This document shows, one piece after another, positions 1,264 through 43,700 of a DNA stretch of 64,000 nt; the stretch's first letter is position 1, and every line of letters starts with the position of its first letter. The stretch lies in the NCBI GenBank assembly GCA_964648765.1, contig CAZYLF010000001.1, positions 79,042 through 143,041 on the forward strand, read 5' to 3'. Both the position numbers and the translations under genes were made by a program. This DNA comes from an uncultured Candidatus Saccharibacteria bacterium (GTDB taxonomy: Bacteria > Patescibacteriota > Minisyncoccia > Phycocordibacterales > JACOZG01). Below the pieces are notes generated by a model. The model did no database searches and was not told the origin of the DNA. It was given only the letters and a program-made list of their open reading frames with translations.

Positions 1264-3912
1264 TTAGATTCCTGTTCCTCCCGCGGGTACATCAATGCCC
1301 GAAACCGTGTCGGGTGGGGTGCCGGTTGCTCCACCAGCAGTTGCGCTCCCACCCCCACCACCTGGACCTGATGGAATATCTCGCCCTGTTGAGCGCATTA
1401 CATAACCGTAAGCGTCATGACTTTCTCCAACTTGGATAACTCGTTCTTTTACCAATCGTTCTGTTTCCCCAGACAAATTCCCATGCTCAAGAAGTTCTCT
1501 AACCATCTGAGCAGACATGGCCCTAACGACTGCGGGGCTGGTTATTTGTTCGGTCGGCAGTCTCTTTAGAACTTTTGGTTCGTAACCATTTACAACTTTA
1601 TTAATTTCATTTTGATACATTGCTTTAAAGTTGTCTTTATCAACTTGCGGTGCGTCGTCTTTTGGCTCTGCAGAGACGAAACCTGCGAGCTTGCTTCCAA
1701 AGGCTGTCTTAATTTTCTCAAACTCCCCTGATTCCATATCGTTTTCTAAGGCATCGAGGTAGCTGGAATTAAGAAGGTGGGCAATTTTTTCCAGCTTCTT
1801 TTTGTCCAATTTTGTGATTTGTTCTTTCGTAATTGTCTTAAGGAAATCCTTTACCTTTTTTAATTTTTCTTCATCCTCTAGATTATCTAAATCAAGAGCC
1901 TTAAAGTCAGATATCTTCTTATTTAATTTATCCTCTCTCTCGGCGTCTTTGGCATCCTTCTCTTTCTTTTTCTTCTCTGCTAGCTCATCCTTGGTTGGAC
2001 CTAGTACGCCAGACTTAAACCCAAACGGAAGTTCTGCGGTGAGTGTGGCGATATGTTCAGACCCAGTAGAAAGGGGTTTTTTCAGGAACTCACCCACCTC
2101 TTTACCTAAAGGCACATTCTTTTCTCCAAATTTGGCTGTTCTGACTCCCGCCTTCCATGCGGCACCAGCCAATCCTCCCTCACCCTTCTTGTCTTTATTC
2201 CAATTTTCTCCAACTTTCTTTTTCCAATCTTTTAGCGTGCCACTAATTCTTGCCCCACTCTCCCTATTTCGGTCTCTTCCTTCTTTGCTTAGTACGTTTG
2301 CGGCCGTACGAATACCACCTTTACCTAGTTTGGTTAATGTCCCAAAGGCAGTCCTATTCATCTTCCCCGCCCAGCCCACAGCTTTTTGGGCCCCGAAGGC
2401 ACCCATTTGGGAAGCGATGATAAGTGAAGCAATTAGGAAGCCGATCACCACAAAAAATTGAAGCCACACATTCATGGCTGTGTTAGTGCCTTGTGAAAAA
2501 TCAATTCCGCTGATTAATTTTGATGAAACAAAAAGGAAGATGAGGTAAGCGGGCGCAAAGAAGCATTGACTCACTAAGCTCGAGAACCATTTATCAAACT
2601 GACCACTCATTTTCCCTGGCATGGCGAGGGCAAAAAAGGCAAGTGGCGAGAGAATAATTAGAAATACCAAAGTCACAATCCTGATTAGGAGCATTATTGT
2701 GCCCGCTAAGATCACAAAGGTTGAGACCACAATTACAAATATTGCTCCAAGTAACGACGAAATAATTTGAACAAAAGTGCCTTTTACTACCGGGGTGGTG
2801 CTGCCATCTGGGTTGGTTTTTATACCCGTAAACTGCTTTTCAAGGCTTAATCCACTCATTAGCGCTCCAGCCACACCTTTTATACTTTTTGTGCCACCAA
2901 AAATCTTGTATTCTTTGCTGCTAGCATCTATACCATTATAAAATTGATAGGCTAAGAGATTAGAAGCGTCTATTACAACCCTAGTGAAGAAGGCACTGAA
3001 GTTAATAAGTAGAGCAATAACGATTACTCTAACGATGATTTTTTTGGCGTCGATATCCTTTAAGCGGAGAGTCATTCCAATAGCCGCATAAAGGAGGATA
3101 AAGATAAAGAAGATATTGGCCAGATCACGGATAATCGCCCAAGTGCTCTGCATTGAACCAAGGCCGCCAATAGTGTCGGCAAATGAGGTAACAGAGAAGA
3201 ATATCGCCTTGTCAAAAAGAAAAGCTGCACCAACCAAAATGCTACCGAACAGTGGAATGATTATTCCTGTGCTTACATAAATAATCATTGCTTTGGCACA
3301 AGAGATAACATCAAAGTTCAAGTCGAAGGAACACTTTATTTCATCTCTAGTAATGTTGGCGACATTAACAGCTACACTTTTTGTATCTGAGCTTGCTATA
3401 TCGTGAACTGCACCCTGATCTTCATCTGGTGAGGTGTACTGTTCGTCAATTTCTTCTTGGCTCAATCCATTTAATGCGGCGCGCTGTCTTTGAAACCTAT
3501 TTATCTCAGCGTCATATTCAACCATTCTGTTGTTTAATAAGTTTGCCTCCTCAATATTTACATCTCTTCCTCCTGGATTGAGCGTAAGAGCCTGGAACCA
3601 TAGTGGGGTAAATACCTCGCCTGGTATCACTCTTGCTAACTCACCTTGTATCCCCAACATTTTACTTATGCCATTATCTAGCGCTGTTATACTTCTTTGC
3701 TTGTCTGCGTCGTTTGTTGGATTTTGTATCACCTGTGATCGTGTTTCATCAATTGCCGCACGGAAGCGTTCATCTATCTCTGTTACTCGTCTTTGAAAGT
3801 CACCTGATACCTCTGCTTCGGCGGCCCTGAATACAGAAAAAAAAGAAATTAGAACAAAAATTAAACTCAGGAGAAGTTTTTTATTTCCAAATAATTTCTT
3901 TAAAAAGTTCAT
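1264..3912 (-). CDS. VirB6/TrbL-like polytopic membrane protein with signal peptide, coiled-coil and Gly-rich C-terminal tail
   Basis: 882 aa. N-terminal signal/TM, a central block of at least 6 hydrophobic helices, a K/E-rich coiled coil, then a poly-Gly tail (SGPGGGGGSATAGGATG). Sits in a T4SS-like context. AT-rich (about 40% GC). Confidence 0.45.
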   Translation of the reverse strand: MNFLKKLFGNKKLLLSLIFVLISFFSVFRAAEAEVSGDFQRRVTEIDERFRAAIDETRSQVIQNPTNDADKQRSITALDNGISKMLGIQGELARVIPGEVFTPLWFQALTLNPGGRDVNIEEANLLNNRMVEYDAEINRFQRQRAALNGLSQEEIDEQYTSPDEDQGAVHDIASSDTKSVAVNVANITRDEIKCSFDLNFDVISCAKAMIIYVSTGIIIPLFGSILVGAAFLFDKAIFFSVTSFADTIGGLGSMQSTWAIIRDLANIFFIFILLYAAIGMTLRLKDIDAKKIIVRVIVIALLINFSAFFTRVVIDASNLLAYQFYNGIDASSKEYKIFGGTKSIKGVAGALMSGLSLEKQFTGIKTNPDGSTTPVVKGTFVQIISSLLGAIFVIVVSTFVILAGTIMLLIRIVTLVFLIILSPLAFFALAMPGKMSGQFDKWFSSLVSQCFFAPAYLIFLFVSSKLISGIDFSQGTNTAMNVWLQFFVVIGFLIASLIIASQMGAFGAQKAVGWAGKMNRTAFGTLTKLGKGGIRTAANVLSKEGRDRNRESGARISGTLKDWKKKVGENWNKDKKGEGGLAGAAWKAGVRTAKFGEKNVPLGKEVGEFLKKPLSTGSEHIATLTAELPFGFKSGVLGPTKDELAEKKKKEKDAKDAEREDKLNKKISDFKALDLDNLEDEEKLKKVKDFLKTITKEQITKLDKKKLEKIAHLLNSSYLDALENDMESGEFEKIKTAFGSKLAGFVSAEPKDDAPQVDKDNFKAMYQNEINKVVNGYEPKVLKRLPTEQITSPAVVRAMSAQMVRELLEHGNLSGETERLVKERVIQVGESHDAYGYVMRSTGRDIPSGPGGGGGSATAGGATGTPPDTVSGIDVPAGGTGI

Positions 3913-15584: not shown

Positions 15585-16820
15585 TTACAATAGCGACAAG
15601 CGGCTAATTAGGTATTCTAGAGATTTGTCGTTGGTGGTTATCACCAAATAACGATTACCTACAATGGTGTAAATCATTTGACTGGCACCAAAAGCGTCGG
15701 GGAGCACGCGCACTTCAAGATTTTGAAAGAGTCGAGAATTAAATACTGCCGTGGCATTTTTGCTTCCGATTAAGGTTGTTAATCTTGAGGCCAGATTTGG
15801 CTCCCACTCCATAATATTTTCGTTTGTGGCGCCACTTACCTCAGCAATCAAGAAGCCGTTTTTAGTTTCATTAATATTTAAAATTCCGTACAAAAATTTT
15901 GATCCAAATTTTGAAATTAAGGTTGCCGGTGCACCAAGTGCCAGCTTACTTTGGAAGCGGGCAAAATCAATTTGCTTTTCGCCTTCCACAAATGCGAGGC
16001 CCGTGAGCGCCTTGTCTTCTTTGGCGTTAGTGAAAACTTGATCAATTTGCGAGCGTAAACCTTCAGCGTCGAGTTTGCTTACTTCTACTTCAACCTCTTC
16101 ATCCGCGGGGATTAAATAAGTAGGTTTAAAGGTTGGAGTATTTGTGGTGACGGTTTCACCGTTTATTAAATTCTTAACTTTTTCAGTGATTTGGGTGGCC
16201 GTGTTGGGGAAGAAGATAAGTAACACCGCGCTCCCACTGGCGGCAAGGAGTAAGATTATTAAAAAAATTAGCAAACCAATCTTCCCTCCCCTTTTAGGTT
16301 TTTCGGTTGTCATTCCGCCTGGCATTGATAAACCCATCCTTGCGCGATCCTTTTCTTGGATAACCATTTTGGTCATACTCATTTCCTCGTCGCGAATGGT
16401 GCGAGCCATGTCACTTTTTAGTGTATGAATGGAGCTGAGTGTACTTACTGGAGCTTGTCTAACTGTGTTTATCTTTAATTCTGATTGTTTAATTTTGCGG
16501 AGACGGTCGTCGTATTGCTCCTTCTCCTTTTTGCCTTCTGAAGCTAGTTTTTGTTTTAAAGCTTCGGCTTTTGCGTTTTCTTCTTGTCGACGCTTTTCCA
16601 TATCTTGTGCTAAGCGCTCTTTAGCAATGGCGCGTGAACGTTCAGTCTGCTCAGCATTGATTCGAACACGTTTTTGTTCCTCGCTTTCCATGGCGGCACG
16701 AGCATCAGATCTACGTTTGGTTAGCACCGCAGTTTCAGCCTCCCGGCGTTTTGCCACCTCCTCACCTTCCATAGCTTTACGCGCCTCCTCTCGGCGAGCT
16801 TGGAGATCGTCAGGACCCAT
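15585..16820 (-). CDS. coiled-coil protein with one TM helix and a C-terminal globular domain
   Basis: K/E/R-rich N-terminal half, TM segment IGLLIFLIILLLAASGSAVLLIFF, ATG verified. Confidence 0.5.
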   Translation of the reverse strand: MGPDDLQARREEARKAMEGEEVAKRREAETAVLTKRRSDARAAMESEEQKRVRINAEQTERSRAIAKERLAQDMEKRRQEENAKAEALKQKLASEGKKEKEQYDDRLRKIKQSELKINTVRQAPVSTLSSIHTLKSDMARTIRDEEMSMTKMVIQEKDRARMGLSMPGGMTTEKPKRGGKIGLLIFLIILLLAASGSAVLLIFFPNTATQITEKVKNLINGETVTTNTPTFKPTYLIPADEEVEVEVSKLDAEGLRSQIDQVFTNAKEDKALTGLAFVEGEKQIDFARFQSKLALGAPATLISKFGSKFLYGILNINETKNGFLIAEVSGATNENIMEWEPNLASRLTTLIGSKNATAVFNSRLFQNLEVRVLPDAFGASQMIYTIVGNRYLVITTNDKSLEYLISRLSLL

Positions 16821-16822
16821 AC

Positions 16823-17413
16823 TTATTTTATTCCTCCAGTTACCTTCAGTTCTTGTAACCGATTTTTGAGTCTGTCTTCCTCGGCTAAAATTTCTCGATA
16901 CTCTTTAGTGTTAGTTTCAATCACGCTTTCAATCTCCCACAGATTTTGCTGGAGATCCCATTTTTCCTTTTCAGCTTTTCGGCGAGCGTCATCAGCCTCC
17001 CAGCGCTTTTTCTCTACTTCAATTTTTTGTTGAGGCAAGGTGGCCTTAGCCTCTTCAAGTTCAAGTGTGGCCTCGGCATCCTCGGCTAACTTCTCTGCTT
17101 CCAAAATTGGCTTAAGGGCGTTATTAATAATTTTACGTTTGTCGTCTTGCTTAACCCACTCAAGTTCGTAATGCTCTTTATTTTTTTCAAGCTTGGCGAG
17201 CTTGGCCTCAATCTCGGCGATTTCTTTGCCGGCTGTTTGACTCCTCTCCTCTTCCAAACGCTTTTCGGTGTGCTCTAAACCTTCCATCGCCATTTTGGCT
17301 TCGGATAATTTTTTCTCTAATGATTTTTGTAAATCTACTTCCGGGTTTACTACTGGAGCTGCATTTACTGGCGTCGGGTTTGTTGCTGGTTGGGTGTTGT
17401 TAGGTTCATCCAT
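16823..17413 (-). CDS. coiled-coil protein
   Basis: 196 aa, E/K-rich heptad-like sequence. Stop is 2 nt from the downstream gene start. Confidence 0.45.
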   Translation of the reverse strand: MDEPNNTQPATNPTPVNAAPVVNPEVDLQKSLEKKLSEAKMAMEGLEHTEKRLEEERSQTAGKEIAEIEAKLAKLEKNKEHYELEWVKQDDKRKIINNALKPILEAEKLAEDAEATLELEEAKATLPQQKIEVEKKRWEADDARRKAEKEKWDLQQNLWEIESVIETNTKEYREILAEEDRLKNRLQELKVTGGIK

Positions 17414-17439: not shown

Positions 17440-18054
17440 TTATTCCAGAGTAGTTGTGATTTGTTCAGGAGATTCCGCTATTGCGGGAGTTTCTTTAACG
17501 GTTGTTTGGCGGCGATTTGTACTGCGGTTGTTGTTAGTCCCGTTACCTCCACCTAAAAGATATTTGCGAGGATTGTTGCACAAATCAATAAAGTCGTCAG
17601 CGGCTTCTTTAAGTTTGCCTGATGTGCTTTTACCAAAGGCAATCGCTTCCACTTGGTTACCGCTATGAATTTTTAAATACTCAACGAGAGGCACAAAGTC
17701 TCCGTCACCCGAGACGATTACTACGGCGTCGAGACGTGGTGCGAGCTTAATTGCGTCTACCGCTAAGCCCACATCCCAGTCTGCCTTTTTAGAACCACCG
17801 GCAAAAATTTGTAAATCTTTAGTTTTAATTTCGATGCCCATTTTGGCCATCGCCTCAAAAAAGTTCTTTTCTTCTCCACTTTCAGTAGTTACCACGTAGG
17901 CTACGGCTCGGATTAATGTGCGTCCAGCCACTGCTTCTTTTAAAATTGCTCCGAAATTTACCCGTGCTCCGTATAGATTTTTGGCACAGTGATAGAGATT
18001 TTGGGTATCGATGAATACACCGACCCTTTGTCCCTTATGTTTGATTATTGGCAT
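17440..18054 (-). CDS. NYN/LabA-like domain protein (COG1432)
   Basis: VGVFIDTQNLYHCAKNLYGARVNFGAILKEA ... VVIVSGDGDF, typical NYN. Confidence 0.75.
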   Translation of the reverse strand: MPIIKHKGQRVGVFIDTQNLYHCAKNLYGARVNFGAILKEAVAGRTLIRAVAYVVTTESGEEKNFFEAMAKMGIEIKTKDLQIFAGGSKKADWDVGLAVDAIKLAPRLDAVVIVSGDGDFVPLVEYLKIHSGNQVEAIAFGKSTSGKLKEAADDFIDLCNNPRKYLLGGGNGTNNNRSTNRRQTTVKETPAIAESPEQITTTLE

Positions 18055-18394: not shown

Positions 18395-19750
18395 CTACAC
18401 GACATTTTTATCTTCCGAAGTCGGGCCATACGACCGGTAACCGACCGGACTCTCGCAGACACTGGCGACATATTCTTCAAGTTCTTGTGCACTATTTATG
18501 AATCCTGTTCCGCCACCACTTGCTCTCATTAAGAGAGCAGTCATATCTGACTGATGTTTAAGTGTCGGATCAAACTTGATTGGTAGTTCTCCAATCACTT
18601 GACCTGAAATCGGATCAGTATAGTGGTCACAGAACTCTAATCGAGTTAGCCGCCCAAAGACATCCTCATGGGTGACTGCAATTTTTGTAAGTGGTGTCAC
18701 CTTTTTAACGCAGGCGGCCGCGTACCTAAGTAACACTCCATCCAAGTGACCGAAACGAAATTTTCCTTGCCACTCTCCTTTGGTGTTATGTTCCTGAGGT
18801 GAGAGGTACTTTTCTTGGCCCTCTGTTTCAGTGGGGAAGGGGCCGGCTCCATGGCGGGTGCCATAAGCTCTGGTGATCCCTATTGTTTCTACTCCGCCCG
18901 CGAAACCATTTTCCTCAAGAATTATCAGGGCGTTTGCGGGTGTGGTTGTGCTCCAGGTAGTGTGCGGGTGAAAACCGAACCACTCATCGAGGAGTACACC
19001 TTGCGCTCCTTCAAACACAACAGGACCTGAATTAAACATCATTTTCACCACTGCTTCCCCGATGATGTTTAAGTGCTTTGATAGTTCGAAATAAGTCTGA
19101 GCTATCAACGTAGGGTGCCCTGGCCCCATCAAGAGATCAGTTTCAGCCATTAAATCAGTGGTGTTCATCTGCTCTGGAGAGAAGCCCATTAATAGCAGCT
19201 CCGCCCTTTTTCTTTCTTGAATGGCGGTGAGGATCTTGGTTACGTGTTTTTTGTTTGATAGATCACCAGCATAGATGACTTCATCTGGGCGATTTACTAA
19301 ATCGGTTGCCGTTTCACCAATCCCCTTACCGCAAGAGCCATGTCTTCCGTTACCCCTCACCCATTCCCGTATACGATTACTGGCCACATGAATGGGAGTG
19401 ATCACCGGAGCTCGATAGTCAATAAAATGCCTACCCATCACGGAGCCTCCGATTTTTCTCGATAGAACATTTGCTTCGTCGGCCAGTGCAACTGGATCCC
19501 ACAACATGAAACGGGAGATTAATGTTTGAACCCCATCAATAAAGGTGCCACTGCCAAATTGTGCGAAGGTGTGGTGTTTGCCACTCCCCGAGACGACATT
19601 ATGAGCTGCCTGGGAGCCACCGTTATAACGAACAACTAGTTTAGCCCCATGGTGACGGCATAAAAAATCCGTCATCGTCCCTTTTCCCTCATCTCCAAAG
19701 CCTAAGCCAACTATGATGTGGGCGGCATATTTTGCCTTACATTTGCTCAT
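18395..19750 (-). CDS. adenylosuccinate synthetase family protein (divergent PurA-like)
   Basis: GDEGKGT P-loop variant, VVRYNGGSQAAHNVV, FEGAQGVLLD, TRAYGTRHGAGPFPTE. All align by eye with PurA blocks. Several key positions differ (see findings). Confidence 0.8.
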   Translation of the reverse strand: MSKCKAKYAAHIIVGLGFGDEGKGTMTDFLCRHHGAKLVVRYNGGSQAAHNVVSGSGKHHTFAQFGSGTFIDGVQTLISRFMLWDPVALADEANVLSRKIGGSVMGRHFIDYRAPVITPIHVASNRIREWVRGNGRHGSCGKGIGETATDLVNRPDEVIYAGDLSNKKHVTKILTAIQERKRAELLLMGFSPEQMNTTDLMAETDLLMGPGHPTLIAQTYFELSKHLNIIGEAVVKMMFNSGPVVFEGAQGVLLDEWFGFHPHTTWSTTTPANALIILEENGFAGGVETIGITRAYGTRHGAGPFPTETEGQEKYLSPQEHNTKGEWQGKFRFGHLDGVLLRYAAACVKKVTPLTKIAVTHEDVFGRLTRLEFCDHYTDPISGQVIGELPIKFDPTLKHQSDMTALLMRASGGGTGFINSAQELEEYVASVCESPVGYRSYGPTSEDKNVV

Positions 19751-19769: not shown

Positions 19770-19807
19770 ATAAAAAAGAACTTAACCAGATTCCTCTGGT
19801 TAAGTTC
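19770..19807 (-). terminator. intrinsic terminator between the vWA gene and the purA-like gene (possibly also a leader terminator)
   Basis: Minus strand reads gaacttaaccagaggaatctggttaagttc followed by ttttttatttg. Only about 20 nt separate it from the purA-like SD/ATG. Confidence 0.55.
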
Positions 19808-19848
19808 TATACTACTTACTTTAATTTGTCAAGTGCAAAGCTAAACTT

Positions 19849-20895
19849 CTAGCGTTTGCGACCTTGGGAACCACCATTTCTGGTAGTTACCACTGCGGAG
19901 GAACTGGCGGCCGTTGCTAGGGCTCCACCACCCACTGGCATGATTGCCTTGGTGGCTGCTGCAGCCGATTGGGCACCGGGCGCCCCCTTCTGCTTCAAGA
20001 TCTCCTCGATCTCGTCGCCATCGACGCCCTGTGTCCGAGCGATGGTCATCACCATGGTGGCAATGATCGCTTCAGTCTCCGGGATTTCGAGGATGCGCTC
20101 AGGATCCTCTCCTGCTGCGCGGAAGAGGTCCTGCCACATCTTGGTGATTGATCGGTCCTTGCCATGTAGAGTGTGGCCTGGTCGGATCACAAACACGTGG
20201 TAGCGGGTGGCCGCTTCTTTGAGCGATTCAAGCATCGTCACTGTCTTCTCGAGATGGTCACCAAAAACTGCCTTGGCGACTTCAGGTGAAGTGCCGTTGA
20301 CCTTGGGGTCACCGGCTCCATAGAAGGGCTCCTCATCACCAATGATGAAGAGGAAGCCCTTCGTGCCATCGCGCTCGAAGCACTCCAGTCGAGTGTGTCG
20401 AGCGGCGGCGTAGAGCGGCAGGTGATAAGCCTCACCCCTGTTGCCTCCCCCTTGATGGGGAATGACCATCTCATTCAAAGCGGTGATGAGCTCTTCTGCC
20501 CCTGTTTCGAACTGGCTCATCTGAAACGCGGCATCTGGTGGTACGGCGTGCTCATCATCATGTTGCATGAACATGATGTTAGGATGGTCGCTGATACCTT
20601 GTTCAGTCAGCATCGTCATCAATGTTGGTAGCGACTTTTGCAAGTCATAGGGCACATCTTCCATCGACCCGGTACCGTCCATGCTCACCACCACAGGTGT
20701 GGCATCATTAAAGCCCGGGGCAAAGCACGACTCCCGCACCCCATTTTTGAGTTGCTTGGGGTCGAGAATGTTTGCCAAGTTAGAGTAAACACCAGTTGCT
20801 CGGGCTTGAGTGGCCCTCGCGAACGTCTGGCCGGTATCTTGCAGCTTACTGACGGCGGCCTTGTACTTAAGTGACTCAAAATTACTACCTCCCAT
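19849..20895 (-). CDS. von Willebrand factor A domain protein (TerY-like)
   Basis: MIDAS-like VVVSMDGTGSM ... FLFIIGDEEP. Track start is GTG at 20940; SD plus ATG at 20895. GC-rich. Confidence 0.6.
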   Translation of the reverse strand: MGGSNFESLKYKAAVSKLQDTGQTFARATQARATGVYSNLANILDPKQLKNGVRESCFAPGFNDATPVVVSMDGTGSMEDVPYDLQKSLPTLMTMLTEQGISDHPNIMFMQHDDEHAVPPDAAFQMSQFETGAEELITALNEMVIPHQGGGNRGEAYHLPLYAAARHTRLECFERDGTKGFLFIIGDEEPFYGAGDPKVNGTSPEVAKAVFGDHLEKTVTMLESLKEAATRYHVFVIRPGHTLHGKDRSITKMWQDLFRAAGEDPERILEIPETEAIIATMVMTIARTQGVDGDEIEEILKQKGAPGAQSAAAATKAIMPVGGGALATAASSSAVVTTRNGGSQGRKR

Positions 20896-20953
20896 GCTCC
20901 ACATCCTTTCATGATTGTGGGTGAGTGGTCTAATCGCCACACCGTGTGGCTAT

Positions 20954-22126
20954 TTAGACCGGACTCATTTCCAGATTTACGAACTTCCTCGAACCAAACA
21001 CTCGTTTGGCAATGCCTCTGAACTCCTCATAAGCCACTGCTGCGTTCTTTGGCCGAAGCCTAATTTTGGGTTGCAAACAACGGTTTAAAAAGTCTTTGAT
21101 CGGTTCCTCTACTGTGCTTGGCAAGTCACCAGATCCTGGTTCTCCGCCAAGTAGATAAACCATGCACCAAGCTGACATATAAATATCAGCTGATGGTGTT
21201 GGTGACCCTCTCCCACCTAAAATCTCAGCGGGAAAAAAGTTTTTGAAGCGTTCGTCCACGTAGGGCAGAGATTGATTTTTTCCGGATAGGCACGAGGCCG
21301 TCCAGTCAATGATCTTGCCACTGTGACTCTCGGTGTGGATCAATATGTGGTTCGGGGTTATTGCGGCGTGTACCACCCCCGACAAGTGAGCCAAGGTTAG
21401 TCCCTCAAGGGTACGATTCCAGATAAAGCACATTTGTCGGGTGTTTATCCCCGTCGGATGTTTGGCCCGGATTTCCTCTAGGTTGAACCAGCCAGCATTT
21501 AAGCCAGATGGTTCAGTGAAGAGGTTTACTACTCGGTGCCCTTGCCCCCCATTATCTTTCAGTTTGACCGACTCAGTGAGGCTTGGGATTCGCGCTAAAA
21601 ATTTGCGCGCACTCTCCGTGCCTTCCGGATCGGTTGCTAACTTTTTAACTTTGGCTTGCATGGCTTTGATCGCCTGAACCTCGCGCTCCATTAGATCGTT
21701 ATCTTTTGGACTGTGAGGGACTCGGGCAATTATCGGTATGGTTTGATTCTCCTTATTTTGCATTATGGCGGAGAAAATACCGCAGGTGCCCCCTTCTCTG
21801 ATTAGTTCCACCAATACGTAAGTACCTTTTTTGGTTTTAAACATTGGCGGACCAATTGGATCAGCTTGTGGTTTAACCGCTAGATTGCCGTAAATGCCTT
21901 GGGCGAATTTGAGTTTGGCTAGTCCCCACAGCTCATTAAGCCGTTTGGAAGCAGTTTCCCCCAGCTCCTTTCCCTCGTCGGTTTGCTGTCGGTCTGGGTG
22001 GACCAACTTACTTAACTTTAGGTAGGTCTTTTCCGCCTCTTCCTGGCTACTTTTTAAGCCAAAAATCTCTTCGGGTTGTTTTGCCCGCTTCAGCTTATTA
22101 AGGACCGATATAAACTCCTTTTCCAT
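20954..22126 (-). CDS. J-domain (HPD) protein fused to a protein-kinase-like (possibly pseudokinase) domain
   Basis: N-terminal YLKLSKLVHPDR, a J-domain-like HPD motif. Kinase-like glycine loop EGGTCGIFSA. HAAITPNHILI sits where HRD is expected, DWT where DFG is expected. C-lobe motif SADIYMSAWCMVYLL. Confidence 0.5.
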   Translation of the reverse strand: MEKEFISVLNKLKRAKQPEEIFGLKSSQEEAEKTYLKLSKLVHPDRQQTDEGKELGETASKRLNELWGLAKLKFAQGIYGNLAVKPQADPIGPPMFKTKKGTYVLVELIREGGTCGIFSAIMQNKENQTIPIIARVPHSPKDNDLMEREVQAIKAMQAKVKKLATDPEGTESARKFLARIPSLTESVKLKDNGGQGHRVVNLFTEPSGLNAGWFNLEEIRAKHPTGINTRQMCFIWNRTLEGLTLAHLSGVVHAAITPNHILIHTESHSGKIIDWTASCLSGKNQSLPYVDERFKNFFPAEILGGRGSPTPSADIYMSAWCMVYLLGGEPGSGDLPSTVEEPIKDFLNRCLQPKIRLRPKNAAVAYEEFRGIAKRVFGSRKFVNLEMSPV

Positions 22127-22220
22127 TGTTTAGTTCCTCCATTTGTAAAAGAACCTGATATCCTTTGCCAGTCTACATTTTTATAACTTTTTGTCAAGTA
22201 TAGTGTATAATGTTTAAAGT

Positions 22221-24112: not shown

Positions 24113-24634
24113 TTAGTCAACGATGAACGATCCCGGGCAATCTCCCGGGCTATGGCCACGGGGTTGTCTGCGCATTGGACGAGGGTCTACAGATTCATCT
24201 GGTAGAGGGATCTTTGTGACATCAACCTTGGGCACGTTCTTGCGCTTGGTTGGTCGTCGTCGGCCAACTTCTTTTAGTGCCATCGCACTTGGTGGTAGTG
24301 CACCCCCACGAGCATTGTCCATCCAATCTTCGGCCGGGATCCCTTGCAAAAAATCTTGCAAGGTGGGGATGAACAGCATGTCGAAGTCTTCATTCACATG
24401 TTGTTCTGCAACATCACGTGTCGAGTAAGTACCTCCTGCCGAGTTAGTCCTCTCTTCGCCAAAGACCCTCGGAATTACCGTGTAAATGAACCAAGAGTTG
24501 TGAGTGGCCGCCCTGTGGCGCAGATCTTGAAATACACTTTTGCTCGAGTCCATAAAATCATGGATATCCAAGTAGTCTTCCGCCTTGCCGCCAAATTTTT
24601 TGGCGCTATTTTTGGCGTGTTCATAAGGTTTCAT
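24113..24634 (-). CDS. hypothetical protein
   Basis: GGAGGA SD plus ATG at 24634. The longer track ORF would run through an upstream terminator hairpin. Confidence 0.45.
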   Translation of the reverse strand: MKPYEHAKNSAKKFGGKAEDYLDIHDFMDSSKSVFQDLRHRAATHNSWFIYTVIPRVFGEERTNSAGGTYSTRDVAEQHVNEDFDMLFIPTLQDFLQGIPAEDWMDNARGGALPPSAMALKEVGRRRPTKRKNVPKVDVTKIPLPDESVDPRPMRRQPRGHSPGDCPGSFIVD

Positions 24635-24719
24635 TACCAAATCCTCCACAAAAATGAAATTGAACTGGTTGCCAATGAACCATCTGTGAGCAAATTTAGC
24701 ACAAGGTGAAATTTTATAC

Positions 24720-24748
24720 AAAAAAGGCGTCTCTCGCAGAGAGACGCC
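24720..24748 (-). terminator. intrinsic terminator (minus strand)
   Basis: Minus strand reads ggcgtctctctgcgagagacgcc followed by tttttt. Confidence 0.55.
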
Positions 24749-37623: not shown

Positions 37624-37703
37624 TTAAATTATTCTAGCCTAGATTTTGCCGTGTTGCTAATTATCTGTTATATTAGCGAGGCACCGGACAGATTCGCTCC
37701 CGT

Positions 37704-37775
37704 GGTGAAATGGATATCACAACGGTCTTCGGAACCGTTATTGGGGGTTCGAATCCCTCCGGGAGCACAGCGACG
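37704..37775 (+). tRNA. tRNA-Arg (anticodon TCG)
   Basis: Manually folded: 7-bp acceptor GCTCCCG/CGGGAGC, D-stem GTGA/TCAC, anticodon stem ACGGT/ACCGT, loop CTTCGGA, T-loop TTCGAAT. Confidence 0.8.
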
Positions 37776-37806
37776 AAGGGATTCGAGAATCCCCGAGGTA
37801 GCGAAT

Positions 37807-37877
37807 GCGGATATCGTTTAGTGGTAGGACACGTCCTTGCCAAGGATGAGGTGGGAGTTCGATTCTCCCTATCCGCA
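37807..37877 (+). tRNA. tRNA-Gly (anticodon GCC)
   Basis: Acceptor GCGGATA/TATCCGC, anticodon loop TTGCCAA, T-loop TTCGATT. Confidence 0.8.
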
Positions 37878-38003
37878 CACAATATGTACCTTGTCTCATT
37901 ATTTCCATCAGACAGTCCGTTATAAACCCTTAAAACTGTGGATAACTCTGGGGACAATGGGGATAAAAGACAGTAAAAGTCGTCTTATATGGCTTAAAAT
38001 CGT

Positions 38004-38387
38004 ATGTCCAAGACAGAAAAGCAGCTGACAGGTGATGTTGGGGAAAACCTAGCAGCTATGTTTCTTATGAAACATAATTTCACCATTATTGGCCGTAATT
38101 ACCGTAAAAAGTGGGGTGAGATTGATGTCATTGCTAAGAAGGGGAATGAGATTAGATTTGTGGAAGTGAAGACTGTGATCCGAGATTTTATTAAAGAAGG
38201 GGATTATGAGGCGTCAGATAATGTGCATCCGTGGAAGCTTAAGAGACTTTCACGAGCGATTCAGACATATTTGTTAGAAAATAAAATTAATGAAGATGAA
38301 ATTGATTGGCAGCTTGATGTAATCTCTGTATATTTAAACGGGCGAGGGGAGACTTTAAAAATTGATTGGTTAGAGGATGTGTTTTAA
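38004..38387 (+). CDS. YraN/UPF0102 family endonuclease-like protein
   Basis: GENLAAMFLMKHNFTIIGRNYRKKWGEIDVIAKKGNEIRFVEVKT matches the UPF0102 pattern. Confidence 0.7.
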   Translation: MSKTEKQLTGDVGENLAAMFLMKHNFTIIGRNYRKKWGEIDVIAKKGNEIRFVEVKTVIRDFIKEGDYEASDNVHPWKLKRLSRAIQTYLLENKINEDEIDWQLDVISVYLNGRGETLKIDWLEDVF

Positions 38388-38468
38388 GCTTGACTTTTGT
38401 GTTGTTTCTGCTTTAATGTGAAAAGCGAATTTTGTTGTTTGAAATGGTAAATTTGAAAGGAGAAAATC

Positions 38469-39425
38469 GTGGCCGAAAGTCGGAAAGAACGCCTCAAAGA
38501 TCTAGTTTTGTTGCCATTCTGGGTGCTCTTATTCTTGCTTATTCTAATTATTTATCCATTTTGGCTTTTGTTTACCAGAGTGGTGAACTGGGTGGGATTA
38601 AGCAATTTACGCACAATGAAAGGTGATGTGCAGACTCCGGTGGTTTATTTTCTGAATCAAAACACCAAACGGATGGTGATTCTGGTAGGGGTGGTGCACC
38701 TCGGCGAGAAGTCGTATTACGCGCAAATCCGGGAACTTCTGGCCTCACTCGACGGCTTCACTGTTCTTTATGAATGGATTAAAGCCTTAAGTGATGAGGA
38801 AAAGTCGAAATTAACTGAGAAGTCCGAAAAAATCGTAAAGGAGTTTGAGAGCTATGGTAAATCCTCACGGATGATTTGTGAGATTCTGGGCCTACAGCCG
38901 CAGAAAGAGGGTTTGCCAATTGAAGCAAAGTGGATCAACACTGACGTAAGAGCCTTTGAATTGATCAATTACTTTGTGAATCACAATCTCAATTTCATGA
39001 AAGATATCGGCAAAATTGAGAAACTTCTAGGTGCGGAATCTGACCAAGTGCTTGATAAGTGGCTACTGAATGGGACCTTCAAGCGAATCATTGTTGTTAT
39101 GGTGTTTGCGGGGTTTTATAGTAAACTCACCAGAAAGCGCCGTTTGAAGCATGATTTTTTGATTAACCAGCGGAATGTTGTTGCAGTTGAAGGTATCCGC
39201 GAGCATTTGGCCAAAGGCAATGTGGTGGCAATATGGGGAGCAGGGCATTTGCCGGGGATTGCCAAAATGCTTAAGCAAGATGGCTTCAGTGTGGTGGGCA
39301 AAGAATGGTACACGGCGTATAAAGCAAAAGATTGCTCGTTTTGGGATGTTTTTGCCGATCGTAGTGTGGTGGCGGTGGAGCGTTTGGCGGCAATTTCTGA
39401 TCAGATAACGAGAATAAAAAAGTAA
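38469..39425 (+). CDS. TraB/GumN family protein
   Basis: GTG start with GGAG SD. N-terminal TM. Motifs LVGVVHLGEKS and GAGHLPGIAKMLKQDGFSV are typical of TraB/GumN. Confidence 0.6.
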   Translation: MAESRKERLKDLVLLPFWVLLFLLILIIYPFWLLFTRVVNWVGLSNLRTMKGDVQTPVVYFLNQNTKRMVILVGVVHLGEKSYYAQIRELLASLDGFTVLYEWIKALSDEEKSKLTEKSEKIVKEFESYGKSSRMICEILGLQPQKEGLPIEAKWINTDVRAFELINYFVNHNLNFMKDIGKIEKLLGAESDQVLDKWLLNGTFKRIIVVMVFAGFYSKLTRKRRLKHDFLINQRNVVAVEGIREHLAKGNVVAIWGAGHLPGIAKMLKQDGFSVVGKEWYTAYKAKDCSFWDVFADRSVVAVERLAAISDQITRIKK

Positions 39426-39449
39426 CACAGTTTGCTTAGGCAAACACCG

Positions 39450-39483
39450 ACCCCCTCCGTAAAAAAGAGGGGGTTTGATTTTA
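39450..39483 (+). terminator. putative intrinsic terminator
   Basis: accccctc-cgtaaaaaa-gagggggt followed by ttgatttt. Confidence 0.45.
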
Positions 39484-39484
39484 A

Positions 39485-39556
39485 TCGGAGCGCCGGGATT
39501 TGAACCCGGAGTCACACGAACCCGAATCGTGCATGTTACCGTTACACTACGCTCCG
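39485..39556 (-). tRNA. tRNA-Pro (anticodon CGG)
   Basis: Minus-strand fold: acceptor CGGAGCG/CGCTCCG, anticodon stem CACGA/TCGTG with loop TTCGGGT, T-loop TTCAAAT. Confidence 0.8.
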
Positions 39557-39677
39557 TAACTCTTGGGTAATTTAACATAATTAAAATTAATTTGTAGTAA
39601 TCCACCTCATTTGCTAGGGTTAAAATTGGAAAATAACAAGCTCGAAGGCTTGTTTGTGGAAATTAAGGAGGACTGTA

Positions 39678-40292
39678 ATGGCGAAGAAAAAGGTTAGATC
39701 GGGAATTCAGAGGCGGGTCAAAGCATCTGCAAGCAGAAATTTGGTTGATGAAATCAACTCTAAGCTTGAAAGTGTAAGACGTCAGCTTGTGATGGAGATT
39801 ATCCCCGACACCTCTGGGAACGAACACACACTCTTAAATTTGGGGGTAATAGGGGATGGGTGTGTTCAGAATATAAATAAAGGGCACTTCTTTTTTCCAT
39901 TTTTAGGAAATAGATATGTAGCCGCGATGTGCTTTTACGGGAAGGCATCTGCGTATGACGTAAGGGCATATAATTTTAACAACCCCTTTTCCCCTAACCC
40001 TCTTAACGATCTTTTGTCTGGCAATTGGTCTATGCGAGTCGGCGCTCAGCACTTTCTTTCTGAAAATTTTGGATCAAATGGGCGTATGTTTTTGGGAAAC
40101 AAGGCTGTTTTGGATTGGTTCTTTGAGAGAGCGCTTTTACACCCCATGGCTAAGCCATATGAGGTTCTTAAGTTTGCAACTAATGTCTTTAGTGCAGAAA
40201 AGATAGTCGTTTCAGGTTATCAACACTACCTGAGAGAAGTAATCCAACAAAGGCTCGATGGTGTGGGCCAAATAGTAGAGCTTTTGGGTTAG
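39678..40292 (+). CDS. hypothetical protein (MAKK family A, paralog 1)
   Basis: AAGGAGG plus ATG. C-terminal GNKAVLDWFFERALLHPMAKPYEVLKFA resembles the 40416 gene. Own terminator. Confidence 0.5.
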   Translation: MAKKKVRSGIQRRVKASASRNLVDEINSKLESVRRQLVMEIIPDTSGNEHTLLNLGVIGDGCVQNINKGHFFFPFLGNRYVAAMCFYGKASAYDVRAYNFNNPFSPNPLNDLLSGNWSMRVGAQHFLSENFGSNGRMFLGNKAVLDWFFERALLHPMAKPYEVLKFATNVFSAEKIVVSGYQHYLREVIQQRLDGVGQIVELLG

Positions 40293-40314
40293 GTTGATTT
40301 CTAGAAGCTGATCT

Positions 40315-40345
40315 GGCCCCGTCGCTTGTGACGGGGCCTTTTTCT
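40315..40345 (+). terminator. intrinsic terminator
   Basis: ggccccgtcgcttgtgacggggcc followed by tttttc. Confidence 0.65.
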
Positions 40346-40415
40346 TGCTAGTTTGAGGTTTGAAAACTCGAGCCAAGGTGGCTTGTTAGGATCTTTGATT
40401 TGAAGGGAGAAAACG

Positions 40416-41180
40416 ATGGCAAAGAAGGTTATGAAGGTGGAGCAGAAGAAAAGCGGCGGTTTGGTTCAGCGTATTAACGAGGTGCTGAAGGATCACAATG
40501 GCCAATTGGCGATGGTGATCAAGCATGAAACTGCTTCGCCCCAGAAAAGTGGCGGGGTAAGAAGAAATTGTGAAGAACCGACCATGGATCTCGATATCGA
40601 GCCGAGGATCAAAACGACGCTTCGTGTTGGGAGGGTATGCAAGGGGTTGCCAGTAGAAAAGCTTAGGGAAGATGGAATTTTTTCCATGCCGGCTTTTGGC
40701 GGTATCGTGGTATGTAAACGTGCTAGCGAAAAAGATCAATTTTCCGTTGAGTTTTTAAAGGGGGAAGGATATTTTTTTATCCCCGCGCAATCGGTAATAC
40801 CGCTTAAGAAGAAGGCCCCTGAGGATGTGTCTGGCGAAGAAATCTTGGATATTCTCAAAAGCCGCGAGCATGGAATGGGTTTGATTGGAGATAAGGCAGT
40901 TATTGAATGGCTCCTTGGTGATTATCTGGATAATCCAGAGTCAAACGCACCTGAGGTACTTGCGCAGGCCATCAAGCACCTTAAGATTGATAAAGAAATT
41001 GGTCTGCCGAATTTTTTTGTGGGACGACACGAAGCGGCAGAAGCAAGGTTTCAACAGGTGGAGGAGGCAATTTACCAGTTGGTGCCGCAAAAGCTTCGCG
41101 AGCTAAGAAGTTCGATCGAGCATGAAAAGAAGCAGTTAGAAACCTTAATCGAATTGTCTACTGAAAGGAGGGGAGGATGA
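40416..41180 (+). CDS. hypothetical protein (MAKK family A, paralog 2)
   Basis: GGAG SD plus ATG. GDKAVIEWLLGDYLDNPESNAPEVLAQA resembles the 39678 gene. Confidence 0.5.
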   Translation: MAKKVMKVEQKKSGGLVQRINEVLKDHNGQLAMVIKHETASPQKSGGVRRNCEEPTMDLDIEPRIKTTLRVGRVCKGLPVEKLREDGIFSMPAFGGIVVCKRASEKDQFSVEFLKGEGYFFIPAQSVIPLKKKAPEDVSGEEILDILKSREHGMGLIGDKAVIEWLLGDYLDNPESNAPEVLAQAIKHLKIDKEIGLPNFFVGRHEAAEARFQQVEEAIYQLVPQKLRELRSSIEHEKKQLETLIELSTERRGG

Positions 41181-41842
41181 ATCTGAAACCGTGGAAAAAG
41201 AAGGAACCGGAGAATCTTTCTCCGGAAGAGGCGAGGTTTAAGAGGGGATTTGATCGGTTGTTTGGCTTTGGTCTGCCAGAGTATGTGCAGAAATCTCTCG
41301 AGCGCCAAAAATCTTTGGTGATCGCCCATGCTTTGAAGTTGCAGACCACCGACTTTTATTCAGTAGTACCGCTTAGTGACGTAAATTTGCCAACGCAGCT
41401 TAGTTGGCTGGCTGGTAAAAAGGCACCGAGTTTACCTCATTATCGTCGTTGGCCAAAATGTCGATTCGGCAGTTTGCCAGACTTGCCGTGGTTTATTTTT
41501 GGTGTGAAGGTCACTAATTGTTTGGATCACAGCGTGGAGGACGTGGCGCGACACTTAGTAGGCGAAGGGGAGGAGATCCTGACTTTGCCAGAGGTGATTG
41601 CCTTTTTGCTTGAGGTGAAAAAGACGCAAGCCGAAGCCCCAAGTGAGCCTCACCCCATAAAATTGGCGCTCTCCACATTTCATCTTGTTGGTAATATGGA
41701 TGGCAACAATTGGCCACTCATCACTTGTGATAGTGCGGGAGTGGCGCTGGTGTCGAGACAAGATTCTGCGCTTATCTCAACAACCAGACCCAACAATTAT
41801 CTCCTTTCAACTCAAGTCAGAAAGTGTTTTGTTTTGGAATAG
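41177..41842 (+). CDS. hypothetical protein
   Basis: ATGA overlap with the upstream gene. 221 aa. Followed by a terminator. Confidence 0.5.
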   Translation: MNLKPWKKKEPENLSPEEARFKRGFDRLFGFGLPEYVQKSLERQKSLVIAHALKLQTTDFYSVVPLSDVNLPTQLSWLAGKKAPSLPHYRRWPKCRFGSLPDLPWFIFGVKVTNCLDHSVEDVARHLVGEGEEILTLPEVIAFLLEVKKTQAEAPSEPHPIKLALSTFHLVGNMDGNNWPLITCDSAGVALVSRQDSALISTTRPNNYLLSTQVRKCFVLE

Positions 41843-41849
41843 TTCACTC

Positions 41850-41884
41850 GCCCCGCGCCGTAAATGGTGCGGGGCTTTTTTTTA
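41850..41884 (+). terminator. intrinsic terminator
   Basis: gccccgcgccgtaaatggtgcggggc followed by ttttttttt. Confidence 0.7.
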
Positions 41885-41906
41885 TGCTAGATTAACTGGG
41901 CAATAA

Positions 41907-41977
41907 CGGAGCGTAGTATAGCGGTAGTATGCATGCTTTGGGAGCATGTGGCCCGGGTTCGATTCCCGGCGCTCCGA
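41907..41977 (+). tRNA. tRNA-Pro (anticodon TGG)
   Basis: Acceptor CGGAGCG/CGCTCCG, anticodon stem CATGC/GCATG with loop TTTGGGA, T-loop TTCGATT. Confidence 0.8.
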
Positions 41978-42074
41978 AGATTAGGTTTTCAAATTTGCGT
42001 GAGTTTATTTTTTGGCGTACCATATATCCCAACGTGTTCTTTGGAGGTTGGAGTCAGTTTTTTATGGAGGATTT

Positions 42075-42374
42075 ATGAAAACGGCCCCATGTTTGGCTAG
42101 TGATCTCTCGGTGTATCCAGAGTCGTCGTTGCGCGAGATTGGCCACTGGTTGGACCAATCTATTGGAGCGATGGAAAGTTTAAGTAAATTAAGGAGCACC
42201 ATCCCGTCTTTTTTTGGTTCTGATCGGCGCCTGACGAGCGCTTCCAACGCTTTTGTTTCTAGTGTTGGCGCGTTACTCCTAACTCTTCACGAAATGAAGG
42301 ACCTGCGCTCCAAAATTACTGATGAAATCAGGAAAAAGCGCGAAGTGCGTGAGCCTTCTCTCATTTCTGCATGA
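42075..42374 (+). CDS. small hypothetical protein
   Basis: GGAGG plus ATG at 42075 inside the track ORF. 99 aa. Terminator downstream. Confidence 0.4.
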   Translation: MKTAPCLASDLSVYPESSLREIGHWLDQSIGAMESLSKLRSTIPSFFGSDRRLTSASNAFVSSVGALLLTLHEMKDLRSKITDEIRKKREVREPSLISA

Positions 42375-42398
42375 AGAAAAAGCTGGAAAAAACAACTA

Positions 42399-42439
42399 GC
42401 GCCAGTCCCGCACCGTTGCGGGACTGGCGCACTTTTTTG
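42399..42439 (+). terminator. intrinsic terminator
   Basis: gcgccagtcccgcaccgttgcgggactggcgc followed by acttttttg. Confidence 0.7.
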
Positions 42440-42510
42440 TCTGTGCTAAAATCAAATCAGTCTGATCTTTGTGAGACAGGCTATTTTATACCAAATAAGG
42501 AGGATGATCG

Positions 42511-42876
42511 ATGGGTCGATCCCGGCGTCGGCGTGGATATGGTGGCAATAACAATGGTCAATCTAATGGGGGAAAGGCAAATAAACCCCAAGCAGCGCCT
42601 ATCCAAACAAGCAACGAACAATCAAAGCAGCCCCCGTCAATTTATTGTGGTATTTGCGGAAAAGCCCACGATAACGGCTTTCCAATTTGGGAGTTGCCAT
42701 GTGGTCGTCGATTTAACATCAGGGTAGAAATTCCAGCCTGCGACTTTTGCTTAGACTCAAAGCATTTCAAAGACTTTCTTGGTCTTCGTGATGCAAATGG
42801 TCCTAAGACTACGTCGGATTACCTCACTCTCCTTGCTCGTTACATAGAATTGTATCAAAAAAGACGTACATCCTAA
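42511..42876 (+). CDS. small Cys-rich (zinc-ribbon-like) protein with Arg/Gly-rich N-terminus
   Basis: AAGGAGG plus ATG. CGICGK ... CGRRF ... CDFC. Preferred over the overlapping track ORF 42371..42727. Confidence 0.45.
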   Translation: MGRSRRRRGYGGNNNGQSNGGKANKPQAAPIQTSNEQSKQPPSIYCGICGKAHDNGFPIWELPCGRRFNIRVEIPACDFCLDSKHFKDFLGLRDANGPKTTSDYLTLLARYIELYQKRRTS

Positions 42877-42898
42877 GTTTCAAAAAAAGTAATTAAAC

Positions 42899-42940
42899 TT
42901 GCCCTGACCATCATACGGTTGGGGCAACTTTTTATTTTAA
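42899..42940 (+). terminator. putative intrinsic terminator (imperfect stem)
   Basis: ttgccc ... gggcaa followed by ctttttatttt. Confidence 0.4.
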
Positions 42941-42944
42941 ATTT

Positions 42945-43015
42945 TCGGGCTGCCGAGAATTGAACTCGGTCTACATGCACCCCATGCATGCGTACTGCCG
43001 GTATACTACAGCCCG
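42945..43015 (-). tRNA. tRNA-Pro (anticodon GGG)
   Basis: Minus-strand fold: acceptor CGGGCTG/CAGCCCG, anticodon stem CATGC/GCATG with loop ATGGGGT, T-loop TTCAATT. Confidence 0.8.
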
Positions 43016-43127
43016 TAGCAACAACCATGTATCATACTTCTGATAACGAGGTTTGCAACTTTTTGTGCTTTAGAGTAGTTTTCATTATTAGTGAGGACAA
43101 ATAAGCTTTTTGAAAGGAGGCAAGCGG

Positions 43128-43640
43128 ATGAGCGGAGCACAGGTTGAAAGCCGTTTCAAAGTATTTGAAGAAATTGAAAACGCTTTGGCTGGCAAAATCG
43201 GTGAGCGAGTGCTGGTGGTGAAGAGGGGAATCCATCATCAAAAACGCGCAAGCGATAACACGGTGGTGCACTCGTGGCATGTTGAGGAATGGTTTATAGG
43301 CAGATTGAATGCGAACATTTTACTTACCGAGCCGGACTGTGGAATTATCTTTGTGCCGGTGGAGAAGCACGTGCGGGCAAAATTTCCGTACGGCAATCAG
43401 AAGGTAGTGTGTGATGTTACCACCTCACCTATTCGTCTTAATGTGTTTGATGACGATGGAGCGATTGAAACGGTGATTCCGCCGCGAGAAGCTTTTGATC
43501 TCAGTGTGCGTAATGCGCCGCCACGCTCTGTGCAAGTGGTGATCTCAGACGATCCGATCAGAAGTTTTGTGGCAAACAAGGGTAAAATGGCTGCACACAT
43601 GTATTTTTGTCTCAATGCACAACTTCATCGTAGTGGGTAA
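43128..43640 (+). CDS. hypothetical protein
   Basis: AAAGGAGG plus ATG at 43128. 170 aa. Own terminator. Confidence 0.5.
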   Translation: MSGAQVESRFKVFEEIENALAGKIGERVLVVKRGIHHQKRASDNTVVHSWHVEEWFIGRLNANILLTEPDCGIIFVPVEKHVRAKFPYGNQKVVCDVTTSPIRLNVFDDDGAIETVIPPREAFDLSVRNAPPRSVQVVISDDPIRSFVANKGKMAAHMYFCLNAQLHRSG

Positions 43641-43654
43641 GATATCAGTTTTTC

Positions 43655-43683: not shown

Positions 43684-43700
43684 TTGCTACAATTATATGA

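Follow-up and report, generated by a model that had tools for sequence, protein, structure and literature searches.

What would join a J-domain, a kinase-like domain and a von Willebrand factor type A (vWA) domain in one small bacterial locus? The question arose from a 64,000-nucleotide stretch of DNA, referred to here as the window, from an uncultured Candidatus Saccharibacteria bacterium (GenBank assembly GCA_964648765.1, contig CAZYLF010000001.1, positions 79,042 to 143,041 of the forward strand). The original prediction, made from the sequence of the window, described a two-gene unit composed of a J-domain fused to a degenerate kinase (gene K) and a TerY-like vWA protein (gene V). Both open reading frames (ORFs) were found where predicted on the minus strand, and all of the listed sequence motifs were present. 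The start of V needed correction. A mechanical ORF call gave V as 19849-20940 with a GTG start at 20940, whereas the real start is the ATG at 20895, because position 1 of the family profile falls there and the database copy is 348 amino acids long. The unit also proved to be larger than a pair. A third co-oriented ORF, gene P, lies immediately downstream of V and belongs to the same unit, which extends to position 18395. The three genes called on the minus strand are as follows.

20954..22126, minus strand: gene K, J-domain plus pseudokinase, 390 amino acids (ORF, Pfam, profile, AlphaFold model)
19849..20895, minus strand: gene V, cytosolic vWA protein with a predicted metal ion-dependent adhesion site (MIDAS)-like motif, 348 amino acids (database copy, profile, fold comparison)
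18395..19750, minus strand: gene P, divergent PurA-like enzyme with an adenylosuccinate synthetase fold, 451 amino acids (Pfam, alignment to PurA)

One genome per species was scanned for the unit. Among 185,579 species, about 420 contained a V relative, and 80 loci were kept. K, V and P were adjacent and co-oriented, in that order, in about 75 of these 80 loci, and the exceptions occurred mostly at contig ends. The co-occurrence of J-domain-kinase fusions with vWA genes, suggested as a check of the pair, was thus confirmed in other genomes. The hosts included members of the candidate phyla radiation (CPR), Ktedonobacteria and other Chloroflexota, Planctomycetota, Actinomycetota (Actinoplanes, Kitasatospora, Streptomyces and Frankia), Myxococcota, Abditibacteriota and a gammaproteobacterial metagenome-assembled genome. 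The same order was found in metagenomic contigs encoding relatives of K or V, where a gene of the Adenylsucc_synt family was always located beside V.

In viruses, V and P were adjacent in 81 of 83 loci. K was present in 35 of the 83, in the order K-V-P or V-P-K. Cultured phages with V comprised 219 records, including 201 from Mycobacterium (Bixzunavirus type), 10 from Rhizobium and 6 from Vibrio. In Mycobacterium phage Tonenili, for example, a kinase (gp106), a hypothetical protein (gp105) and a PurA-like protein (gp104) are encoded in that order. Clustering of neighbouring genes across 171 loci yielded no conserved fourth gene, be it for an Hsp70, a phosphatase or an effector. This pattern of linkage identifies V and P as the core of the cassette and K as a frequent third member that is universal in cellular genomes. 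Where phages have V and P but lack K, small proteins of 125-145 amino acids, belonging to two families, were observed directly upstream of V, in the place of K (L109 5594-5971, L116 5558-5944, L110 4790-5221, L122 5589-5990 in our numbering of loci, and related viral loci); no HPD motif was seen in them by eye.

P is annotated as an adenylosuccinate synthetase (Pfam Adenylsucc_synt) and aligned over about 380 residues with PurA of Escherichia coli (1ade) and of the Bacillus type (4m0g), with E values of 1e-31 to 1e-32. Its scores against the NCBIfam PurA equivalogs were low, 176.3 against a cut-off of 402 bits for NF002223 and 158 against 395.6 bits for TIGR00184, and it scored higher against the phage family phrog_1211 than against the PurA equivalog. 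The following motifs were located in P.

19679-19696, minus strand: P-loop GDEGKG
19598-19630, minus strand: RYNGGSQAAHN
19313-19342, minus strand: HGSCGKGIGE
18998-19015, minus strand: FEGAQG
within 18827-18859, minus strand: TRHGAGP
within 18740-18778, minus strand: loop GEWQGKFR, in place of GATTGRRRR
18662-18676, minus strand: VTHED

In E. coli PurA numbering, P keeps the catalytic residues D13, K16, H41 and Q224 as well as D333, which specifies guanine. It differs from the E. coli enzyme by the changes N38Q, I126H, T128S/T, T129C/V, V273H, T300W/Y/F and T301Q and by the loss of R303 and R143; the loop GATTGRRRR becomes xx(W/Y/F)-Q-G-xFR. In E. coli PurA, T300, T301 and R303 bind L-aspartate, and N38, T129 and R143 contact the 5'-phosphate of inosine monophosphate (IMP). 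These residues were intact in both canonical PurA proteins used in the alignment. The pattern of kept and changed residues was common to every V-linked copy of P, with or without K, across phyla and phages. Because the aspartate and IMP-phosphate pockets are remodelled alike in the V-linked copies while the catalytic residues are kept, P appears to be neither the housekeeping PurA nor the phage enzyme PurZ. In phages, actinomycetes and CPR bacteria, many genes annotated as "adenylosuccinate synthetase" or "PurZ-like" thus probably encode a different enzyme. Three of the substitutions, I126H, T129C and V273H (in "HGSCG" and "TRHG", window 19313-19342 and 18827-18859), place potential metal or catalytic ligands near the nucleotide site, and they are conserved across phyla.

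The retained chemistry suggests another explanation, in which P is an ordinary adenylosuccinate synthetase that salvages IMP to AMP, K and V assist purine and NAD nucleotide salvage as accessory regulators or chaperones, and the phage copies constitute an auxiliary metabolic module. All residues required for the chemistry are kept, the source databases name P an adenylosuccinate synthase, and no second PurA homologue was found within the 64-kb window. The neighbourhood, moreover, recurs with genes for NAMPT, NMNAT/NUDIX, NrtR, NAPRTase and ribonucleotide reductase. We nevertheless consider this explanation unlikely. It does not fit the replacement of T300, T301, R303, N38, T129 and R143 in every V-linked copy, nor scores that are below half of the PurA equivalog cut-off. 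Free-living actinomycetes, myxobacteria and planctomycetes carry the cassette too, as do phages of Mycobacterium, Vibrio and Rhizobium, and a canonical purA is expected in all of these organisms or hosts.

Genes for NAD salvage or its regulation were observed within a few kb of the cassette in both phages and CPR bacteria. They encode NAMPT/NadV-like proteins, NMNAT/NUDIX, NrtR-type NUDIX, NAPRTase and NAD synthase (L012 610-1998; L052 264-1622; L171 480-2146; L004 5118-5852; L007 4279-5037; L003 11781-13164; also L099, L108, L138 and 11 other viral loci). NAMPT-like genes alone were near the cassette in 16 loci. This recurrence could reflect a generic nucleotide-metabolism neighbourhood or could be a functional hint. 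Ro60/TROVE genes, whose products carry a vWA domain of their own, were found near the cassette in 7 loci (L005 3688-5175; L116-L118 about 1775-3229). Phages of the Bxz1 type presumably also encode a Ro-like protein.

V was more difficult to classify. Pfam gave no VWA match for V of the window, only 7 of 26 V relatives were matched by the VWA family, and then weakly, and a sequence search of the PDB returned nothing. The vWA domain was recognized only by comparison of folds. The sequences VVVSMDGTGSM and IIGDEEP, from which a MIDAS-type vWA protein had been proposed, are present in V. Across 130 distinct sequences, we found G2, D73, T75, G76, S77, D114, Q125, E130, G149-G150, E155, Y157, G180 and D187-E188 to be unchanged; D73-x-T75-G-S77 together with D187-E188 make up the MIDAS-like constellation. 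Thus, the proposed assignment holds, and V is a protein with a modelled vWA fold and a predicted MIDAS-like metal site. The features of V are listed below.

20890-20895, minus strand: invariant Met-Gly
20662-20679, minus strand: DGTGSM
20425-20451, minus strand: GGGNRGEAY
20326-20343, minus strand: IGDEEP
19852..19932, minus strand: C-terminal tail (amino acids 322-348), predicted to be disordered, with a predicted local distance difference test score (pLDDT) <50

The V family forms 1880 clusters at 50% identity, and nearly all members are 300-350 amino acids long and begin at profile position 1. Conservation of Gly2 is 100% in bacteria and phages alike, and the start codon falls exactly at that first position. 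The C-terminal tail is conserved too: 64 of 105 distinct tails end in RL, those of planctomycetes end in Phe, and those of the window's clade have a GRKR-like end in place of the RL found in most other lineages. One V homologue (P0336) contains an intein (Pfam Hint; residues about 173-460) between "KKGY" and "CFIIGDEGPY", exactly in the strand where the invariant Asp-Glu pair of the MIDAS-like motif lies; sites critical for function are the usual location of inteins. Domain fusions were also sought as Rosetta-stone evidence, but none was real: P0336 is V plus its intein, and P0370 is a frameshift artefact.

The J-domain of K had been proposed from its HPD tripeptide, and profile searches recognized the same region. 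Alone, K of the window scored 18.8-22 bits against Pfam DnaJ (PF00226), below the cut-off of 27.8 bits. A profile of its N-terminal 82 residues matched only J-domain proteins in the PDB (DNAJC8 at 1e-7, auxilin at 3.5e-6 and E. coli DnaJ at 9e-6), 13 of 22 K relatives matched Pfam DnaJ with a best E value of 2.7e-9, and hhalign aligned the N terminus with the J-domain of E. coli DnaJ at 95.7% probability. In the model of K, the HPD motif is flanked by helices 28-42 and 50-75, and the motif is conserved across phyla. At the level of the family, then, sequence profiles identify the N-terminal 80 or so residues of K as a J-domain.

21893..22126, minus strand: J-domain (about amino acids 1-78; profile search, Pfam, hhalign)
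21992-22000, minus strand: HPD (amino acids 43-45)
20957..21844, minus strand: kinase-like domain (about amino acids 95-390; profile to CK2 alpha, Foldseek)
21773-21796, minus strand: Gly-loop EGGTCGIF (amino acids 111-118)
within 21716-21733, minus strand: Arg135 at the position of the VAIK lysine
within 21677-21703, minus strand: Glu of helix alphaC (E149)
21347-21370, minus strand: HAAITPNH (amino acids 253-260), lacking the HRD aspartate
21299-21307, minus strand: DWT (amino acids 274-276)

The remainder of K is kinase-like, as had been predicted. Pfam Pkinase (PF00069) scored 35.7 bits against a cut-off of 31.7 bits, covering only amino acids 222-330 in the C-lobe. A family profile built from 25 relatives aligned both lobes, including the Gly-loop, to CK2 alpha with an E value of 6e-10, and the AlphaFold model of K (pLDDT 90.8) was matched by Foldseek to Pim1, PknB, GRK2 and YopO at about 1e-11. 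In the alignment to CK2 alpha, R135 corresponds to the VAIK lysine, E149 to the alphaC glutamate, HAAITPNH to HRDVKPHN and DWT to DWG.

The degeneration of the active site also held for the family, although not in every detail. In 80 further loci, all relatives had a catalytic loop of the form H-G/A-A-x-(L/T)-P-x-H, in which Ala always stands in place of the HRD aspartate, and His in place of the metal-binding Asn. The alphaC glutamate is kept, the aspartate of DFG mostly so, and most non-CPR members retain the VAIK lysine. K of the window has Arg135, Ala255 and Asp274 at the VAIK Lys, HRD Asp and DFG Asp positions, respectively. Thus, the arginine noted in the original prediction is real in the window but is a trait of some CPR members and not of the family, and the tryptophan of DWT, also read as a sign of degeneration, has a counterpart in the DWG of CK2. 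Since the HRD aspartate is never present, K is a pseudokinase by the classical definition. With the VAIK lysine, the alphaC glutamate and mostly the DFG aspartate kept, K may still bind nucleotide; its residue pattern suggests a protein that probably lacks the classical phosphotransfer mechanism and yet retains nucleotide binding.

These features bear on the original interpretation of the locus as a two-gene module for stress response or phage defence akin to TerY-P, in which a vWA protein acts with a kinase or pseudokinase and the J-domain takes the place of the phosphatase. The TerY-P triad reportedly consists of a TerY vWA protein, a Ser/Thr kinase and a PP2C phosphatase, as said to have been set out by Anantharaman, Iyer and Aravind in 2012. 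The vWA and kinase folds are indeed adjacent and co-conserved, and K is weakly similar to the defence-associated kinases MkoA (5e-11), PD-T4-6 (1.5e-8) and MAD6 (2.8e-7), although these are partial matches to the kinase domain only. Against this reading, the HRD aspartate is absent from all K relatives, no fourth gene, PP2C or otherwise, is conserved, PADLOC returned no match to V or P, V has no significant match to a VWA or TerY family, and the tightest linkage is between V and P rather than V and K. The TerY-P framing was therefore abandoned, and we regard it as the least probable of the explanations considered here.

The explanation that we favour, while holding it as tentative, is that K, V and P constitute a self-contained cassette in which P is a GTP-dependent ligase, V its obligate partner and K the component that couples the pair to DnaK. 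From the folds, motif patterns and gene linkage described above, we infer a physical complex, its substrates and the recruitment of Hsp70. P would be the catalytic component, a PurA-fold enzyme that is probably a GTP-dependent ligase. It keeps the residues for activation of a 6-oxopurine by O6-phosphorylation (the Asp and Lys of the P-loop, His41, Gln224 and Asp333). Because the aspartate pocket and part of the pocket for the nucleotide 5'-phosphate have been rebuilt, its substrate is likely to have changed, and P may use some amine in place of free L-aspartate for coupling to a purine nucleotide, or it may act on a nucleotide other than IMP. V would be the obligate physical partner of P: it might complete the active site as a subunit, or it might be a substrate or carrier. 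K would recruit DnaK/Hsp70 to V and P, as an adaptor or a sensor, in order to assemble, activate or dismantle the pair. The biological role could be the salvage or remodelling of nucleotides, or it could lie in phage-host conflict.

A more specific version of this scheme concerns the N terminus of V. After removal of Met, the alpha-amino group of Gly2 might replace L-aspartate and attack the GTP-activated C6 of the purine, so that V would become covalently "purinylated" at its N terminus as an N6-(peptidyl)-AMP, and the J-domain pseudokinase would, together with DnaK, load or recycle the modified V. The proposal is consistent with the obligate pairing of V and P, with the complete conservation of Gly2, which is followed by small residues, and with the change of Thr/Thr/Arg to Trp/Gln in the aspartate loop and the loss of R143. 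If true, it would represent a new kind of protein modification by a PurA-fold enzyme. We offer it as a speculation and regard it as improbable.

The distribution of the cassette suggests another possibility, namely a conflict system that is antiviral in bacteria or, in phages, serves counter-defence or superinfection exclusion. K would sense infection or proteotoxic stress via DnaK and then release V and P, which would either re-aminate deaminated adenine nucleotides or produce a purine nucleotide that is modified or toxic. The cassette has a patchy distribution (about 420 of 185,579 species) that suggests a tendency to horizontal transfer, is enriched in developmentally complex bacteria, is abundant in large phages and occurs in varied genomic contexts; in the window, the G+C content of V exceeds that of its surroundings. 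The flanks of the cassette in the cellular genomes examined were unrelated to one another and consisted of housekeeping or secondary-metabolism genes, not defence islands. The lack of a recognized effector domain among the three proteins, of PADLOC matches beyond generic kinase similarity and of an experimental report in the full-text literature searched likewise leads us to view a conflict system as doubtful.

Several observations weigh against the self-contained cassette as well. K is missing from 46 of the 83 phage loci and is therefore dispensable for the action of V and P. In 7 of 25 members of the window's CPR clade, HPD is replaced by HED or HKV, and in several members of this clade the VAIK lysine is Arg or Thr; K may have degenerated further there. 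P could yet function as an adenylosuccinate synthetase whose aspartate site is unusual, and it may be the only PurA homologue in CPR genomes, as it is within the window. The strong terminator-like hairpin between V and P, described below, means that K, V and P may not form one transcript in the window. Finally, the structures of K and V are AlphaFold predictions.

If the three proteins do act together, the cassette would represent an undescribed and widespread module, with about 1,900 clusters of V at 50% identity and relatives in at least 420 bacterial species that represent seven or more phyla; at least 300 viral contigs and about 200 sequenced Mycobacterium phages of the Bxz1 type have relatives as well. 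It would join a pseudokinase with the recruitment of Hsp70 and with purine chemistry of the PurA type, which, to our knowledge, have not been found to work together. The reannotation of P would affect metabolic reconstructions of CPR bacteria and the way in which auxiliary genes of phages are interpreted. The cassette is directly testable, because it is present in genetically tractable phages of Mycobacterium smegmatis and because Actinoplanes, Kitasatospora, Ktedonobacter and Labilithrix, which also carry it, are in culture.

Two further features of the window could bear on expression of the cassette.

22170..22197, minus strand: promoter-like TTGACA-16-TAGACT upstream of K (consensus match only, with fewer matches than in shuffled sequence)
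19777..19808, minus strand: terminator-like hairpin between V and P, a 14-bp stem followed by the T-run TTTTTTATTTG

The hairpin, which follows V at 19808-19777, corresponds to the terminator noted earlier. The description of the pair as the most GC-rich part of the window was also accurate: K and V occupy its most GC-rich 2.3-kb stretch, with a G+C content of 0.517 as opposed to 0.447 for the window and 0.559 for V alone (62% at third codon positions). A search upstream of the cassette with Rfam, which covered 13 loci and the cassette part of the window, returned neither a riboswitch nor any other known RNA, and no DnaK gene was found within its 64 kb.

Among the neighbouring genes tested with Pfam, P and the recombinase matched their own families, one gene matched none and the next was DUF6915. 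The recombinase, of the Xer-type tyrosine class, does adjoin K upstream in divergent orientation, as had been noted. It was not beside the cassette in any other locus examined, so that a mobile element with Xer was rejected and the adjacency is incidental. The flanks of the cassette (including ORFs at 15585-17413, 17440-18054 and 24113-24721, all on the minus strand) encode an NYN-domain protein, the DUF6915 protein and two Lys/Glu-rich coiled-coil-like proteins, of which one is predicted to have a membrane segment; none of these genes was kept beside the cassette in other genomes examined. Elsewhere in the window, six tRNA genes lie within 6.5 kb (37696-44229), and sign changes of the GC skew occur at about 38, 52 and 59 kb.

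How does the cassette compare with known systems? A full-text search, which left most subscription journals outside, found no report in which an adenylosuccinate synthetase is connected to a pseudokinase, a J-domain or a vWA protein, and in the literature searched the combination is, as originally suggested, undescribed. Known defence systems (PADLOC-DB 2.0) were rejected as relatives since V and P had no match. The cassette resembles TerY-P in having a cytosolic vWA/MIDAS protein beside a kinase-fold protein in a small, mobile-looking unit. It differs in that its kinase lacks the catalytic aspartate in all members and is fused to a J-domain, a PurA-like enzyme is the third gene and there is no phosphatase: Pfam detected no PP2C among the neighbours in the window, and none was conserved across the 171 loci. 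V of the window, in turn, reaches no VWA family threshold. On these grounds, with the kinase and the phosphatase as the two decisive features, membership in TerY-P was rejected.

P shares with PurA the fold, the P-loop GDxGKG, His41, Gln224 of FEGAQG, TRxGxGPFPTE and Asp333. It differs in being always paired with V, in its remodelled pocket residues and in scoring below the equivalog cut-off. PurZ (2-aminoadenylosuccinate synthase) and PurZ0, which belong to the phage 2-aminoadenine pathway, are, like P, phage-borne PurA homologues, and P falls into the same PHROG family (phrog_1211) and carries a PurZ-derived label in GenBank. In PurZ, a serine (Ser14) takes the place of PurA Asp13 (10.1101/2025.10.22.683976). 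P keeps Asp13 (G-D-x-G-K-G) and scored 42 bits with the NCBIfam PurZ model NF038379, against a cut-off of 300 bits, and its identity with PurZ was rejected. The product name of Tonenili gp104 (L169 6031-7359) is "2-aminooxy adenylosuccinate synthetase, PurA like". Proteins labelled "2-aminooxy adenylosuccinate synthetase" keep Asp13 and are therefore not PurZ; the label looks like a corrupted PurZ name that is spreading among phage proteins (compare PMC12884076). The settings differ too: the genes found together with PurZ, an enzyme that uses aspartate, are datZ, mazZ and dpoZ, and those found with P are V and often K.

K resembles auxilin and GAK in combining a J-domain and a kinase fold in one polypeptide, and auxilin was among the best matches of the J-domain profile. 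GAK is a eukaryotic J-domain protein with an active N-terminal kinase, a C-terminal J-domain and a role in clathrin uncoating. Its kinase, unlike that of K, is active, the order of domains is the reverse, and the homology is limited to the two generic domains. Toxin-antitoxin-chaperone (TAC) systems contain a SecB-like chaperone and a chaperone-addiction tail. By analogy only, the cassette likewise has three genes, and its chaperone-linked component could control its partner via a disordered C-terminal tail. The proteins are non-homologous, with a J-domain and DnaK in place of the SecB-like chaperone, and no toxin activity is known for P. At the level of the system, the K-V-P cassette appears to be new, and it is built from known folds.

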